From Candidatus Brocadiia bacterium (lineage in GTDB: Bacteria; Planctomycetota; PUPC01; DSUN01): a stretch of DNA of 33,694 nt. The DNA is taken from NCBI GenBank assembly GCA_016782825.1, contig JADHXT010000003.1, positions 1 to 33,694 on the forward strand, read 5' to 3'. The translations under genes were made by a program, and so were the position numbers. The notes beneath the pieces were generated by a model. That model searched no databases. It was not told the DNA's origin and saw nothing but the letters and a program-made list of their open reading frames with translations. Positions 14,491 to 31,895 of the stretch are shown piece after piece (the stretch's first letter is position 1; every line of letters starts with the position of its first letter).

Positions 14491-14518
14491 TTGACAGCCC
14501 TTGGCGCGACTGTATAAT
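14491..14518 (+). promoter_or_regulatory. Consensus sigma70 promoter heading the pilM locus
   Basis: TTGACA-16 nt-TATAAT, about 100 nt upstream of the GTG start. Confidence 0.7.
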
Positions 14519-14620
14519 TGCCAAGTGCCAAGTGAGTTGGAACCATTCGGGAAGGGCGTGACGACGTAAGCCGCGCGCTGGCTCCTCCGGAGCGCGCGCG
14601 ATAGCGAAGGAGTCCCGAGC

Positions 14621-16408
14621 GTGGCACGTAACGTGGCCTGGGGCATCGACATCGGAGAATCGGCGATCAAGGTCGTCCAGCTCCGCAAGAGTGGCGATTC
14701 GGTCGTCGTGCAAGACCACCGCACCATCGCGTGTGCCGCGCGGCCCGAAGAGGCCCAAGGCGCCGACAAAGACTACCGCATCCGCAATGCCATCGCCACG
14801 CTCCTGGAACAAGTAGACATCAAGGGCACCGTGGTCGTCTCCATCTCCGGCCAGGAGGTGTTTCCCCGCTTCCTGCCGCTGCCGCCGGTGGAGGCGAAGC
14901 GCATCCCCGAAGTGGTGCGCTACGAGGCCCGCACCTCCATGCCCTTCCCCATCGAAGAGGTGGTGTGGGACTACCAGCCCCTCGACGAGCACCCCGAGCC
15001 CGGCGAAGAAATCGAAGTGGCCCTCTTCGCCATCAAGCGCGCCACCGTCTACGGCTATCTGGCCAACCTGCGGCTCGCGCACCTCGTGCCCGATATCCTC
15101 GAGATTGGCCCCCTCGCCCTCTACAACCTGCTGTGCTACGACCGCGACATCGATGTGGGCACCGTGGTCATCGACGTGGGCGCCGGCAACACCGACCTGC
15201 TCATCATCGACGGCGACCGCTTCTGGACCCGCAACGTGTCCATCTCCGGCAACGACATTACCCGCGCGCTTCAGGAAAAGTACCAGATCTCCTTCGAGGA
15301 GGCCGAGCAGCTCAAGCAAAAGGCCGCCGACTCGAAGCAGGCCGAGAAGCTCTTCGGCGTCATGCGCCCCATCGTGGACGACCTGCTCGGCGAAATCCAG
15401 CGGTCCATCGGCTACTACAAAGCCCAGACGCACAACGTGCGCATCGAGCGCGTCATCCTCCTGGGCAATGTGTTTCGCCTCGAGCCCCTGGTGGGCTACT
15501 TCCGCGAGAGCCTGGACGACTACGACGTGGCCCGCATCGGCGGGCTGCAACGCATGCGCGTGGCCGGCGCCGACCCCGCCGAGTTTGCCCCCGAAGTGGG
15601 CAACTACGGCGTGGCCATCGGCCTGGCCCTCCAGGGCCTCGGCCTGGGCCGCGTGACCATCGACATGATGCCGTCGGATGTCATCCGCCAGCGCCTCATC
15701 AAGCAAAAGCTCCCCTACGCCGCCGCCGCCGTGGGCCTCCTGGCCGTGCCGATCTTCCTCGGCTTCGGCTCGGCCGCGAGCGACGTGTCCACCTACGACA
15801 CCAAGGTGAAGGAAGTGGTGCCGAAAATCCAGCGGTACCAACAGCTTGCGGCCGAGGAGAAGAAGGCCGCGAACCTGGAGCCCATGGCCAGCCAGCTCGA
15901 GGCCATCAGCAGCATCGGCCAGGGGCGGGCCGAATGGCCCCTGTACATGAATAGCCTCAACGAGGCCCTCCGTCAGGTGCCACGCAACCGCTTCCTTCTG
16001 CGGCGCATCCTCCACCTGGGCGATGGCACCGCCGCCCCCGGCATGGCGGGCGGAGGAGGGCTCGGACGCGGCGCGCGGCGAGCCCCACGCCCCGCGGCAG
16101 CGGAAGACAAGCTGCAGGAAGACGCCGTGACGCTCCTGCTCGAATTCGAGAGCGACCAGCGCTTCATCGTGGCCGACACCCGACTGCTCGAGCAATACTT
16201 CATCGGGCAGGCCTACGTGCGGAAAGTGGAGTTTGGCGAAGTGCGTCAGATGGCCGGCCAGATGGGCGGCGCGGCCGGGGGCCGCGAGGGCCTGATCCGC
16301 AACGCGGCCGATAGCGTGTGGGTCTCCTCGGTCACCGTCGTCTTCAGCATGCAGCCCCTCAAGGAGAGCCAGCCGTCTGCACCCGACAAGGCCGGCAATC
16401 GCAAGTAG
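14621..16408 (+). CDS. pilM: Type IV pilus-type PilM (actin-like) protein fused to a PilN-like TM and periplasmic region
   Basis: WGIDIGESAIKVVQL, MPFPIEEVVWDYQ, VIDVGAGNT, EIQRSIGYY, VAIGLALQG, then IDMMP (INLLP-like), a TM helix and a coiled coil. AAGGAG RBS. Confidence 0.88.
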   Translation: MARNVAWGIDIGESAIKVVQLRKSGDSVVVQDHRTIACAARPEEAQGADKDYRIRNAIATLLEQVDIKGTVVVSISGQEVFPRFLPLPPVEAKRIPEVVRYEARTSMPFPIEEVVWDYQPLDEHPEPGEEIEVALFAIKRATVYGYLANLRLAHLVPDILEIGPLALYNLLCYDRDIDVGTVVIDVGAGNTDLLIIDGDRFWTRNVSISGNDITRALQEKYQISFEEAEQLKQKAADSKQAEKLFGVMRPIVDDLLGEIQRSIGYYKAQTHNVRIERVILLGNVFRLEPLVGYFRESLDDYDVARIGGLQRMRVAGADPAEFAPEVGNYGVAIGLALQGLGLGRVTIDMMPSDVIRQRLIKQKLPYAAAAVGLLAVPIFLGFGSAASDVSTYDTKVKEVVPKIQRYQQLAAEEKKAANLEPMASQLEAISSIGQGRAEWPLYMNSLNEALRQVPRNRFLLRRILHLGDGTAAPGMAGGGGLGRGARRAPRPAAAEDKLQEDAVTLLLEFESDQRFIVADTRLLEQYFIGQAYVRKVEFGEVRQMAGQMGGAAGGREGLIRNAADSVWVSSVTVVFSMQPLKESQPSAPDKAGNRK

Positions 16409-16456
16409 CACCGCCGAGCGCCACGCGGGACCACACTGGTCGAGGAACACAATCCT

Positions 16457-31295: not shown

Positions 31296-31343
31296 CGGGG
31301 TGCGCCCAGAGCATGCCCCACCCGTCACGCCGACGGAACTGCG

Positions 31344-31370
31344 GAGCCGGCCCTCAAGGGCCGGCTCTTT
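31344..31370 (+). terminator. Intrinsic terminator-like hairpin between exbD2 and exbD3
   Basis: Perfect 10-bp stem GAGCCGGCCC-TCAA-GGGCCGGCTC followed by TTT. Confidence 0.65.
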
Positions 31371-31469
31371 GCATGACGGCCACCGACGCAAGCTTCCTGG
31401 CCCAAGACGGGTAGAATCCTGCAGATGGCCAGTGTCGCCGGCCCCCCCGCCCTGCTTGGAGGAAGAACC

Positions 31470-31895
31470 ATGCGCGTGCTGCGGCCACGTCAGAAGCCCG
31501 AGGCGCGTCTTTCCATCACGCCCATGATCGACGTCGTGTTCCTCCTCCTGATCTTCTTCATGGTCGGCATGAAGTTCAGGGCGTTCAACCGGAAGCTCCC
31601 GGCCGAGCTACCTCGCGCTGGAAAGGCGGATTTCGGCCACGAAGTCTGGGTGCGCATCGACGACAGGAACAGGGGCGGGGGCGGAGAGCCCAGCCCCAGG
31701 ATCGCCGTCGACCAAGTGGTCATGCGCGGCTGGGACCACACGTTCAGCACCCTCGAACGCCTCTCCCGAGCACCAGGGGCGCTCAAAGACCCCGTGGTCC
31801 TCGATCCCACCGACGCGGCTCATACAGGGTGGGTGCTGAGGATCATGGACTATCTGCATCTGCTGGGCTACTCGAACATCAACTTCAGGCAGTAG
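31470..31895 (+). CDS. exbD: ExbD/TolR family protein 3 (close duplicate of protein 2)
   Basis: LSITPMIDVVFLLLIFFMV. ATG 31470 follows GGAGG. Colinear with exbD2. Confidence 0.88.
   Translation: MRVLRPRQKPEARLSITPMIDVVFLLLIFFMVGMKFRAFNRKLPAELPRAGKADFGHEVWVRIDDRNRGGGGEPSPRIAVDQVVMRGWDHTFSTLERLSRAPGALKDPVVLDPTDAAHTGWVLRIMDYLHLLGYSNINFRQ

Follow-up and report, generated by a model that had tools for sequence, protein, structure and literature searches.

The window analysed here is a stretch of 33,694 nucleotides from a Candidatus Brocadiia bacterium (Planctomycetota) whose genome is 61% complete. Between positions 14621 and 31895 it carries eleven genes, numbered g1 to g11, which are all encoded on the forward strand with gaps of 22 to 178 nt. 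The neighbour upstream of g1 is a rubrerythrin-like gene that ends at a forward-strand terminator-like hairpin (14466–14479; five G-C pairs followed by a T-rich tail), and this hairpin marks the 5' boundary of the cluster. It is followed by a sigma-70-type promoter-like site on the same strand (14491–14518, TTGACA-16 nt-TATAAT, 12 of 12 positions), which is a consensus match only; the promoter scan returned three promoter-like sites compared to 1.2 +/- 1.1 in shuffled sequences. The sole forward-strand terminator-like site within the cluster is a weak one located inside g6. The eleven co-oriented genes with short gaps behind a consensus promoter, as described in an earlier sequence-only reading of this DNA, were found at the positions claimed. 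With a 12/12 promoter match ahead of them and no clear terminator among them, they appear packed like an operon. Downstream, a rhomboid gene lies on the reverse strand. It has no counterpart at the loci of relatives and was treated as being outside the system.

The first gene, g1 (14621–16408), encodes a PilM-like actin-fold domain (PilM_2, E 1.2e-32) fused to a transmembrane segment and a periplasmic tail, similar to Amuc_1101. Matches to g1 are present in 287 of 301 Planctomycetota genomes. The protein passes the TIGR01175 pilM model (158 bits, cut-off 133), which confirms the PilM half of the PilMN assignment made before, while the PilN half is seen only as the transmembrane segment and the periplasmic tail. 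The product of g2 (16457–18127) is predicted to fold into an N-terminal transmembrane helix, a coiled coil and an Amuc_1100/PilO-like alpha-beta domain. It matches no Pfam family, and in this bacterial family it carries a proline-rich insert and an extra C-terminal part. Its model is closest to Amuc_1100 (6laf, 6kny and 6lad being the best solved-structure matches) and then to PilO, with modest fold-match scores (E 0.01–0.15, TM about 0.5 on the target). Together, g1 and g2 supply the PilM and PilN/PilO-type alignment proteins typical for type IV filament systems. The g3 protein (18181–19890) belongs to no family; its model shows an N-terminal transmembrane helix and several Ig/FN3-like beta-sandwich domains, suggestive of a periplasmic stalk. 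A fold search with g3 yielded generic Ig/FN3 matches only (TM 0.1–0.2 on the query) and no likeness to PilP or TonB.

Two secretins of the PilQ/MshL/GspD kind follow, g4 (20069–22501, Secretin E 1.9e-18) and g5 (22574–25069, E 4e-19). They share the same architecture, with a signal peptide and a TPR-like N-terminal region of around 300 amino acids, and both score above the PF00263 cut-off (67 and 69 bits, respectively), as outer-membrane secretins do. The g4 reading frame opens with a TTG at 19907, but the start is likely the ATG at 20069, which is followed by the signal peptide. The g4 and g5 groups are sisters (SH-aLRT 100) in a secretin tree that was calculated as a quick tree and whose deeper branches were given no weight.

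The remaining six genes encode TPR proteins and a proton motor. A giant exported protein of 1040 amino acids is encoded by g6 (25097–28219; signal peptide read from the sequence). Alone it has no Pfam match, and its orthologue profile matches TPR proteins in 15 stretches (E 1.3e-23). The g7 product (28242–29315) is an exported TPR protein of 357 amino acids that resembles YbgF/CpoB (YbgF model, E 2.4e-12). Compared using hhalign, g7 and g6 match with a probability of 97.5%, both being TPR-type, and g7 shows no relation to the secretin N-terminal region (probability 3.6%). The ExbB/TolQ-family proton channel g8 (29364–30242, MotA_ExbB E 2.9e-29) has a Pro/Ala-rich N-terminal extension and is followed by ExbD1 (g9, 30302–30814), ExbD2 (g10, 30846–31295) and ExbD3 (g11, 31425–31895). 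ExbB (PF01618) and ExbD (PF02472) are above cut-off, and the transmembrane aspartate (within TPMID in ExbD1) is invariant throughout both ExbD family alignments (A5, A6), as in the motor of TonB systems. ExbD1 and ExbD2 can be separated by profile across the sampled families. The three ExbD proteins noted earlier are indeed there, but the third is a lineage-specific local duplication of g10 (73% identical) and two are the norm. Reading the transmembrane regions by eye, we found no TonB/TolA-like membrane helix in any cluster protein: alignments of g2 and g3 (A7, A3) revealed no conserved His or Ser-His, and the g1 segment, read in the window protein alone, has no TonB-like His or Ser-His. Complex prediction with alignment inputs, pairing g7 with the periplasmic portions of ExbD1 and ExbD2, returned no verdict (score 0.00 in two runs, controls not folded) and so speaks neither for nor against a contact.

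The similarity of the first four genes to Akkermansia Amuc_1101-1098, which had been proposed from the sequence, is borne out by the family matches and by the fold of g2. Amuc_1098-1102 (MUL2) is presented as important for mucin acquisition in passages of two reports (PMC13174399; bioRxiv 10.64898/2025.12.30.696933), and its order of PilM-like, Amuc_1100/PilO-like, unknown and secretin gene is that of g1 to g4. However, the equivalog cut-offs are far from reached: g1 scores 226 of 650 bits with Amuc_1101_fam (E 1.2e-66), g2 16 of 180 bits with Amuc_1100_fam (E 0.005 only) and the C-termini of g4 and g5 39 and 61 of 750 bits with Amuc_1098_fam. Judged by these profiles, g1, g2 and the secretins are homologues or analogues of Amuc_1101, Amuc_1100 and Amuc_1098, but no equivalogs. 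Furthermore, the planctomycete cluster lacks an Amuc_1102-like pilin gene upstream of g1, where positions 14407 to 14620 hold the terminator-like and promoter-like sites only. It encodes a pair of secretins that both carry a TPR region at the N-terminus, and it includes TPR and ExbB/ExbD genes that are not part of Amuc_1098-1102, the segment to which this comparison refers.

With a type IVa pilus the cluster shares a PilM above the TIGR01175 cut-off, the PilO-like fold of g2 and the kind of secretin. In contrast to such a pilus, its PilM is fused to the membrane partner, an Ig-stalk protein occupies the PilP position, the secretins have TPR instead of AMIN N-termini, the cluster includes a proton motor, and genes for an ATPase, a platform protein, a pilin and a prepilin peptidase are missing from the locus. 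Within the window we found no PilB/GspE-family ATPase, no PilC/GspF platform protein and no pilin with a prepilin-type N-terminus. Elsewhere in the genome, PF00437 (T2SSE) matches are confined to contigs C41 (431 bits, with MshEN), C189 and C238, the single PF00482 (T2SSF) match is on C157, and 23 PF07963 (N_methyl) matches are spread over other contigs. A PilT-like gene and a second PilM-secretin pair are also encoded outside the cluster. For TonB (PF03544, TonB_C), neither the window nor the rest of the 61%-complete genome gave a match, and TonB_C proteins were found in eight of eight relatives from the same family, elsewhere than in the cluster. Consequently, the claim that pilin, ATPase and TonB are absent holds for the locus but not genome-wide for the ATPases, the platform protein and the prepilin N-termini, and it is further qualified by TonB in the relatives. 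The accompanying caution that missing parts could be encoded elsewhere was justified, since profile searches placed PilB-, PilT- and PilC-like as well as pilin-type genes on other contigs. A canonical pilus set encoded there could serve g1 to g5.

We then compared the locus in relatives. The entire gene order recurs at six loci from four other genera of the family, at 28–87% identity; four of them are complete from g1 to ExbD2 and the other two are cut solely by contig ends. A g6 match is present in seven of eight family relatives, and a search with two peptide patterns returned nine loci, all from the family itself. For the phylum, 40 loci downstream of g1 orthologues from 30 other families were picked by flank length and family spread from a listing of about 150 top-scoring g1 matches (465 further matches exist). 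Because a simple gene caller mislabels reading frames in high-GC DNA, the counts were taken from HMM hits to ORFs in all six frames. A secretin on the same strand lies downstream of the g1 orthologue at 30 of the 40 loci, and ten have g1 without any secretin. Secretin and ExbB both follow the PilM gene at 19 loci (15 further families), 18 of which also have ExbD. Of the loci, 35 span 17 kb or more; all three occur in 18 of these, and ExbB without a secretin in none. Most commonly the genes run M-2-3-SEC-bigTPR-TPR-ExbB-ExbD1-ExbD2-SEC2, separated by anything from a few to about 100 nt. There are departures from this order: seven loci that span 15 kb or more (L036, L039, L043-L045, L047, L048) have g1 and a secretin and no ExbBD, and at L062 a tRNA-synthetase gene separates the secretins from ExbB and a g7-like gene is absent.

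Ten further genomes were taken as two sets of five from families with weak g1 matches, the gene order in the second set being read from coordinates only. In six of these, ExbB has a secretin domain on its own strand no more than about 8 kb away, and in five of the six the motor is flanked by secretins on both sides. Genomes G048 and G086 show no g1-g3 match in the 10 kb upstream. Where the cluster is split, in G050, TPR-ExbB-ExbD1-ExbD2-secretin remains one unit. In total, secretin-motor linkage was seen in 23 of 41 sampled families, and the cluster-linked ExbBs from all sampled families form one clade, with five of six other ExbB paralogues of G008 outside of it. The earlier reading had named as evidence against itself a TPR-exbBD block unlinked from the secretins in relatives; instead, the two are linked at all six family loci, at the 19 PilM loci, in six of the ten additional genomes and in the split genome. 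Since the linkage extends far beyond the window genome, functional coupling is the best reading. Recurrence in relatives and persistence upon splitting define a conserved core, which consists of a secretin, the giant TPR protein, the YbgF-like TPR protein, ExbB, ExbD1, ExbD2 and, in the usual order, a second secretin. In many lineages, including that of the window, a MUL2-like inner-membrane set of PilM fusion, Amuc_1100/PilO-like protein and Ig-domain stalk precedes this core.

The motor resembles several known systems. It shares the ExbB and ExbD families and the essential transmembrane aspartate with TonB-ExbB-ExbD, and it would likewise draw on proton motive force (pmf) to act at the outer membrane. 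Unlike the TonB system, the cluster has no TonB_C protein, contains two different ExbDs, scores under the exbB and exbD equivalog cut-offs, and its outer-membrane partner would be a secretin instead of a 22-strand barrel. Tol-Pal differs as well: no TolA, TolB or Pal family is found among the eleven proteins, and the tolQ, tolR and ybgF models reach 82 of 221, 55 of 127 and 47.5 of 90 bits on cluster proteins. Agl-Glt and the GldLM motor of type 9 secretion combine a 5:2-type proton motor with periplasmic TPR or scaffold proteins and an outer-membrane complex, and the Agl-Glt motor consists of one TolQ-like and two TolR-like proteins. Among the eleven window proteins, Pfam and NCBIfam searches found no Glt or type 9 structural homologues, and to our knowledge secretins are absent from both systems. 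Also similar are the TPR-tolQ-tolR-tolR modules with non-TonB outputs that are proposed for PVC bacteria in passages of PMC12204202 (Mol Biol Evol 2025), where a gliding-type role is suggested for related vWA-linked motors. Genes g7 to g10 reproduce this row of a TPR, a TolQ-like and two different TolR-like proteins, and a paralogous module in G008 (L092) neighbours a vWA protein (PF13768) and a TPR protein, has no secretin, and carries an ExbB that belongs to the cluster clade. The window motor differs in that no vWA domain, hence no membrane-tethered transducer with an SHLS-type helix, was found in the window, and in that it adjoins secretins and PilM/PilO-like proteins; the word 'secretin' does not occur in that paper.

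Taken together, we consider it rather probable that the eleven genes encode one pmf-energised trans-envelope apparatus, of a kind typical for Planctomycetota. The earlier proposal of a single pmf-driven secretin apparatus is thereby supported in part, by the conserved secretin-motor linkage, and qualified by the ATPases and pilins encoded elsewhere and by TonB in the relatives. Building on the observed gene content, key residues and conserved linkage, we infer contacts, stoichiometry, cargo and direction as follows. ExbB with the ExbD1/ExbD2 pair would form a proton-driven inner-membrane motor, whose periplasmic ExbD heads would act upon the exported TPR proteins. These, in turn, may touch the TPR-bearing N-terminal regions of the secretins, so that proton flow would be converted into mechanical work on the outer-membrane channel, either opening a gate or pulling cargo, much as in TonB systems but with no TonB encoded next to the motor. 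The PilM/PilO-like/stalk set would hold the secretin above the inner membrane and may link it to a fibre and an ATPase encoded elsewhere. By analogy with Akkermansia MUL2, the most plausible task is the passage of large polymers, for example polysaccharide uptake. A bolder version, which we hold to be unlikely, sees a third mode of pmf use at the outer membrane, with ExbB/ExbD1/ExbD2 working the secretin via giant TPR proteins and no TonB. Here the machine would be the long-sought gate through which planctomycetes import entire polysaccharides into their periplasm in the 'selfish' mode. It might also form the base of the crateriform structures, with the PilM/Amuc_1100-like/stalk set as inner-membrane anchor.

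Alternatively, two machines might share one operon, an explanation that we regard as possible although doubtful. Here g1 to g5 would form a type IV pilus alignment complex with its secretin, using PilB, PilC and pilins encoded elsewhere, and g6 to g11 a general Tol/Exb-type motor with TPR proteins that maintains the envelope or energises TonB proteins in trans, adjacency reflecting co-regulation of envelope functions instead of mechanical coupling. The pilus-type genes on other contigs, TonB_C in all eight family relatives and the seven loci with g1 and a secretin but no ExbBD are consistent with such a division. The vWA-linked sister motor in G008 shows that the TPR-motor unit can serve other partners. 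Furthermore, the secretin-flanked ExbB is the sole PF01618 match in G048, G086, G080 and G057, and G048 and G086, the two of these four covered by the TonB_C search, carry TonB_C proteins elsewhere; therefore, TonB may be an additional or even the main partner of the motor. However, mere co-regulation fits poorly with a linkage kept in 23 of the 41 families, with a motor that has a secretin on either side even at loci lacking a nearby PilM gene, and with a secretin that stays by the motor after the cluster has split. In addition, canonical ExbD-TonB pairs occupy separate loci in family relatives (e.g., G004:C21, G004:C19, G002:C7).

It is improbable that the TPR proteins and the motor serve in assembly, as PilF/PilW/Tgl-like pilotins that would target both secretins to the outer membrane and insert them there, with pmf used for biogenesis only. 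Known PilQ pilotins are TPR lipoproteins, and g7 weakly matches type_IV_pilW (E 1.4e-4) and BamD (E 5e-4), both under cut-off. Yet, the signal peptides of g6 and g7 do not end in a lipobox when read from the sequence, we know of no pilotin system that uses an ExbBD motor, and a 1000-residue TPR protein with two distinct ExbDs throughout the phylum seems to exceed the needs of targeting. A motility or adhesion machine of the Agl-Glt kind, in which TolQ and two TolRs move periplasmic TPR and outer-membrane parts for gliding or adhesive fibres, has the same motor make-up with TPR partners and the suggested role of the vWA-linked motors in its favour, but is very improbable given that Pfam and NCBIfam revealed no Glt-type barrel, TonB-like GltG/J or vWA adhesin in the window, that Agl-Glt as we know it contains no secretins, and that the cluster occurs widely in a phylum most of whose members do not glide.

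Secretin channels are known to be pushed open by ATP-driven pili or needles, and ExbBD-type motors are known to act via TonB or TolA and in few cases via gliding or type 9 parts. A conserved, phylum-wide operon-like cluster in which secretins flank such a motor points to another way of energising a secretin. In the literature searched, including the Akkermansia work, we found no description of a combination of secretin, TPR proteins and ExbBD. We therefore propose the cluster, in the reading as one apparatus, as a candidate machine for moving large molecules across the planctomycete envelope. According to passages of PMC6474216 and PMC11131199, it is not known how large polysaccharides enter planctomycete cells, and the cluster offers a concrete gene set for this question. 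Since mucin acquisition has been linked to the homologous Akkermansia genes, the cluster may also bear on glycan foraging in PVC bacteria. Genomes in which the secretin-flanked motor has the only ExbB, four of the ten with weak g1 matches, make the respective organisms simple systems for genetics.

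The first three products of the cluster are bitopic inner-membrane proteins of the PilM, PilO and stalk type. The first gene, g1, encodes PilM (PF11104, E 1.2e-32; TIGR01175, 158 bits versus a cut-off of 133); beyond the PilM part the protein continues into a hydrophobic segment and a periplasmic tail. Its match to the Amuc_1101 family (E 1.2e-66) scored far under the cut-off of that model. A Pfam search revealed no family for g2. Its predicted model (11-row alignment, pLDDT 68) has long helices and an alpha-beta domain in addition to a TM helix. When it was compared with solved structures, Amuc_1100 chains took the first ten places (probability 0.89-1.0, E 0.01-0.15, TM about 0.5 on the target), ahead of PilO of Myxococcus and Pseudomonas. 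Because of this ranking we regard g2, with modest strength, as PilO-like. For g3 the family search likewise matched none; the predicted model (pLDDT 70) shows a TM helix and then several beta-sandwich domains, and a profile of its orthologues matched an Fn3-like chain (E 0.002).

Both g4 and g5 encode secretins (PF00263, E 1.9e-18 and 4e-19). A signal peptide is present in both, and about 300 TPR-like residues precede the part aligned to the PilQ model. When 35 secretins were placed in a quick maximum-likelihood tree, the g4 and g5 groups of the family were sisters (SH-aLRT 100), and other lineages had separate first and second secretin groups of their own. Two distinct secretins per cluster are thus, as judged from this tree, a recurrent feature. 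In G009 the second secretin ORF spans 1815 aa with the secretin domain at the extreme C-terminus (locus L033, 5479-10923, - strand), and genes like g6 and g7 come next. The first secretin of the single-contig relative G008 was matched in two different frames (L016, 6482-7345 and 7351-8676), which points to a frameshift, a disrupted gene or a mistake in the assembly.

Downstream of the secretins, g6 (1040 aa) had no match in a single-sequence Pfam search. A profile built from 12 orthologues aligned with TPR proteins over 15 stretches (E 1.3e-23) and also matched YbgF (E 4.8e-5), and the Atlas placed g6 among Planctomycetota TPR clusters. The g7 product is a YbgF/CpoB-like TPR protein (E 2.4e-12, under the cut-off), g8 belongs to the ExbB/TolQ family, and g9, g10 and g11 to the ExbD family, g11 being 73% identical to g10. 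In both ExbD alignments every sequence keeps the TM Asp. The cluster motor is of the ExbB/ExbD kind, with key residues intact and two different ExbD proteins, and the TPR proteins encoded beside it are exported. The description given by the sequence-only reading was therefore right, with corrections to the g4 start, the PilN part of g1 and the third ExbD.

The eleven + strand genes lie between 14621 and 31895 in an operon-like arrangement, with intergenic gaps of 22-178 nt, on a contig, C38, whose entire 33.7 kb make up the window (G+C about 67%); the genome amounts to 2.89 Mb in 290 contigs and is an estimated 61% complete. A promoter-like site matching the consensus perfectly (TTGACA-16-TATAAT, 14491-14518, + strand) is located just 3' of a terminator-like hairpin closing the upstream rubrerythrin-like gene. 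The scan returned three promoter-like sites, versus 1.2 +/- 1.1 in shuffles, and inside the cluster its sole + strand terminator-like site was a weak one within g6. A second promoter-like site (10/12; 19907-19935) in the g3-g4 gap, 5' of the likely g4 start at 20069, may allow the secretin and motor genes to be transcribed from inside the cluster.

Within the family of the source genome, g6 had clear orthologues in seven of eight relatives. Using tblastn with the eleven proteins, we found the order g1-g2-g3-secretin-secretin-g6-g7-ExbB-ExbD-ExbD kept at six loci from four other genera (G008, G005, G007, G002, G006 and G004), at 28-87% identity; it was complete in four and interrupted by contig ends in two. 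The motor genes are tandemly duplicated in two relatives, and the window's exact third ExbD was found at none of the six loci compared. An exported protein of about 200-260 aa, without a Pfam family, is conserved 3' of the second ExbD gene in family relatives (L016 17762-18502, L017 17927-18604, L018 17697-18374, L021 14012-14599) and in some other families (L034, L046 13007-13777, L069 and L070), and could be an additional part of the system. The source genome encodes a 57% identical homologue on another contig (C71, 1573-2121, - strand), and in L034 the protein is apparently fused to a long C-terminal extension.

The first gene is near-universal in the phylum (287 of 301 Planctomycetota genomes, E <= 1e-10). 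Sample A consisted of 40 genomes from 30 other families, picked by flank length and family spread from the best matches listed; in each we took the 20 kb 3' of g1 and scored six-frame ORFs against profiles built from the family. A same-strand secretin was present in 30 of the 40 loci and a secretin together with ExbB in 19; 18 of these also carried ExbD, the remaining locus being cut at ExbB, and two more loci terminate at g6/g7-like genes. Thirty-five loci were 17 kb or longer; of these, 25 had a secretin, 18 had secretin, ExbB and ExbD, and none had ExbB without a secretin. The common order was g1-, g2- and g3-like genes, secretin, big TPR protein (970-1370 aa), smaller TPR protein (about 380 aa), ExbB, a g9-like and a g10-like ExbD, often followed by a second secretin; genes abutted or were separated by a few to about 100 nt, and all profile matches except one were on the strand of g1. 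One of the 19 loci, L062, is doubtful: a tRNA-synthetase gene separates its secretins from ExbB, and it lacks g7. In G113 a sulfatase-TPR fusion (680 aa; L037 4011-6050, - strand) is encoded within the cluster, with an ExbD pair on either side, a single case that hints at a link to glycan processing.

For Sample B we compared secretin-domain and MotA_ExbB coordinates in ten genomes from ten families with weak g1 matches. ExbB lay within about 8 kb of a same-strand secretin in six (G048, G086, G080, G057, G067 and G101), and in five of these, secretins flank ExbB on both sides. The order in G048 and G086 was secretin, about 3.5 kb, g7-like gene, ExbB, the two ExbD types plus an extra ExbD, about 2 kb, secretin; the 10 kb upstream held no g1-g3 matches. 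G050 has a split cluster: one locus (L047) runs from g1 to the secretin without the motor, and a separate one (L085) carries a g7-like gene, ExbB and both ExbD types with a secretin. In all, secretin and exbBD genes were adjacent in 23 of 41 sampled families. Because kin are non-independent and the samples were hand-chosen, these counts are descriptive and not a statistical test.

The sequence-only reading had allowed that missing parts could be encoded elsewhere. Other contigs of the source genome carry three T2SSE matches (PilB-like with MshEN on C41, PilT-like on C238, a third on C189), a single match to T2SSF (C157) and prepilin-type N-termini at 23 sites. TonB_C had no match in this 61% complete genome. 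All eight family relatives encode TonB_C proteins, several adjoining ExbD at other loci, and have 4-14 ExbD matches each. The source genome also has a fourth secretin domain on C104 and a second secretin-PilM pair on C277, where a partial secretin opens the contig and a PilM-like gene comes immediately after it (L073, 2-1057 and 1079-2848; 589 aa, 28% identical to g1), so that at least two PilM-secretin systems are, as read from these genes, present. Further downstream on C277, with other ORFs intervening, lies a gene for an NPCBM/laminin-G protein.

In a FastTree phylogeny, the ExbB copies linked to the cluster grouped into one clade across all families, and five other G008 paralogues fell outside it. 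A sixth (L092; G008 C1, 2470000-2483000) fell inside, in a module ordered vWA protein (500 aa), ExbB, two ExbD proteins, 965-aa TPR-like protein. This is the same module type as the vWA-linked modules of the PVC group in the available text of PMC12204202, where vWA proteins are put forward as a new type of force transducer. Since L092 pairs a same-clade ExbB with a vWA protein, the TPR-motor unit resembles a power pack whose partner can be exchanged. In this cluster, as in many lineages, that partner is a pair of secretins.

We consider it probable that the eleven genes form a single machine, in which the motor would drive the secretin via the TPR proteins; a specific gate-opening relay is tentative, carrying roughly half that weight. 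The main rival, that a pilus secretin complex and a general Tol/Exb motor merely cohabit, is unlikely beside the adjacency across families. It is favored by pilus genes being unlinked to the cluster, by the vWA-linked sister module, and by genomes in which the cluster ExbB is the only one (the sole PF01618 match genome-wide in G048, G086, G080 and G057), with TonB_C elsewhere in the two of these four that were searched for it.

As to the role of such a machine, the Akkermansia pili-like locus MUL2 (Amuc_1098-1102), homologous to part of this cluster, is reported in the available text to be important for mucin acquisition (PMC13174399; bioRxiv 10.64898/2025.12.30.696933), and according to the accessible part of PMC6474216 it is unknown how Planctomycetes carry out the selfish uptake of polysaccharides. 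On these two grounds we venture, by analogy, the bold reading that the cluster might be an import gate for polysaccharide. A full-text search of one literature library found no paper on a cluster of secretin and ExbBD genes in Planctomycetota or elsewhere in the PVC group; the word "secretin" is absent from the nearest paper, PMC12204202. Each part belongs to a known family, and the combination and its breadth across the phylum are, as judged from this search, new.

Around the cluster, the upstream genes are, as judged from their translations, unrelated to it (among them sugar isomerase-, MFS-, EF-G- and glycosidase-like genes and a DHH phosphoesterase), and a rhomboid protease gene and tRNA-Thr follow 3' on the - strand. 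A 7-nt tandem repeat (TGGCGAT, 11.4 copies, 84% matches; 12570-12649) sits between a flavodoxin-like gene and the DHH phosphoesterase gene, and the translation of a small ORF (8640-8852, +) reads like a HicB-type antitoxin. Near-identical DNA to 22000-31900 occurs in contigs of a marine metagenome sample whose study is not the possible source one (sampled-word share up to 0.92), with smaller shares of 0.23-0.26 in freshwater metagenomes from a third study.
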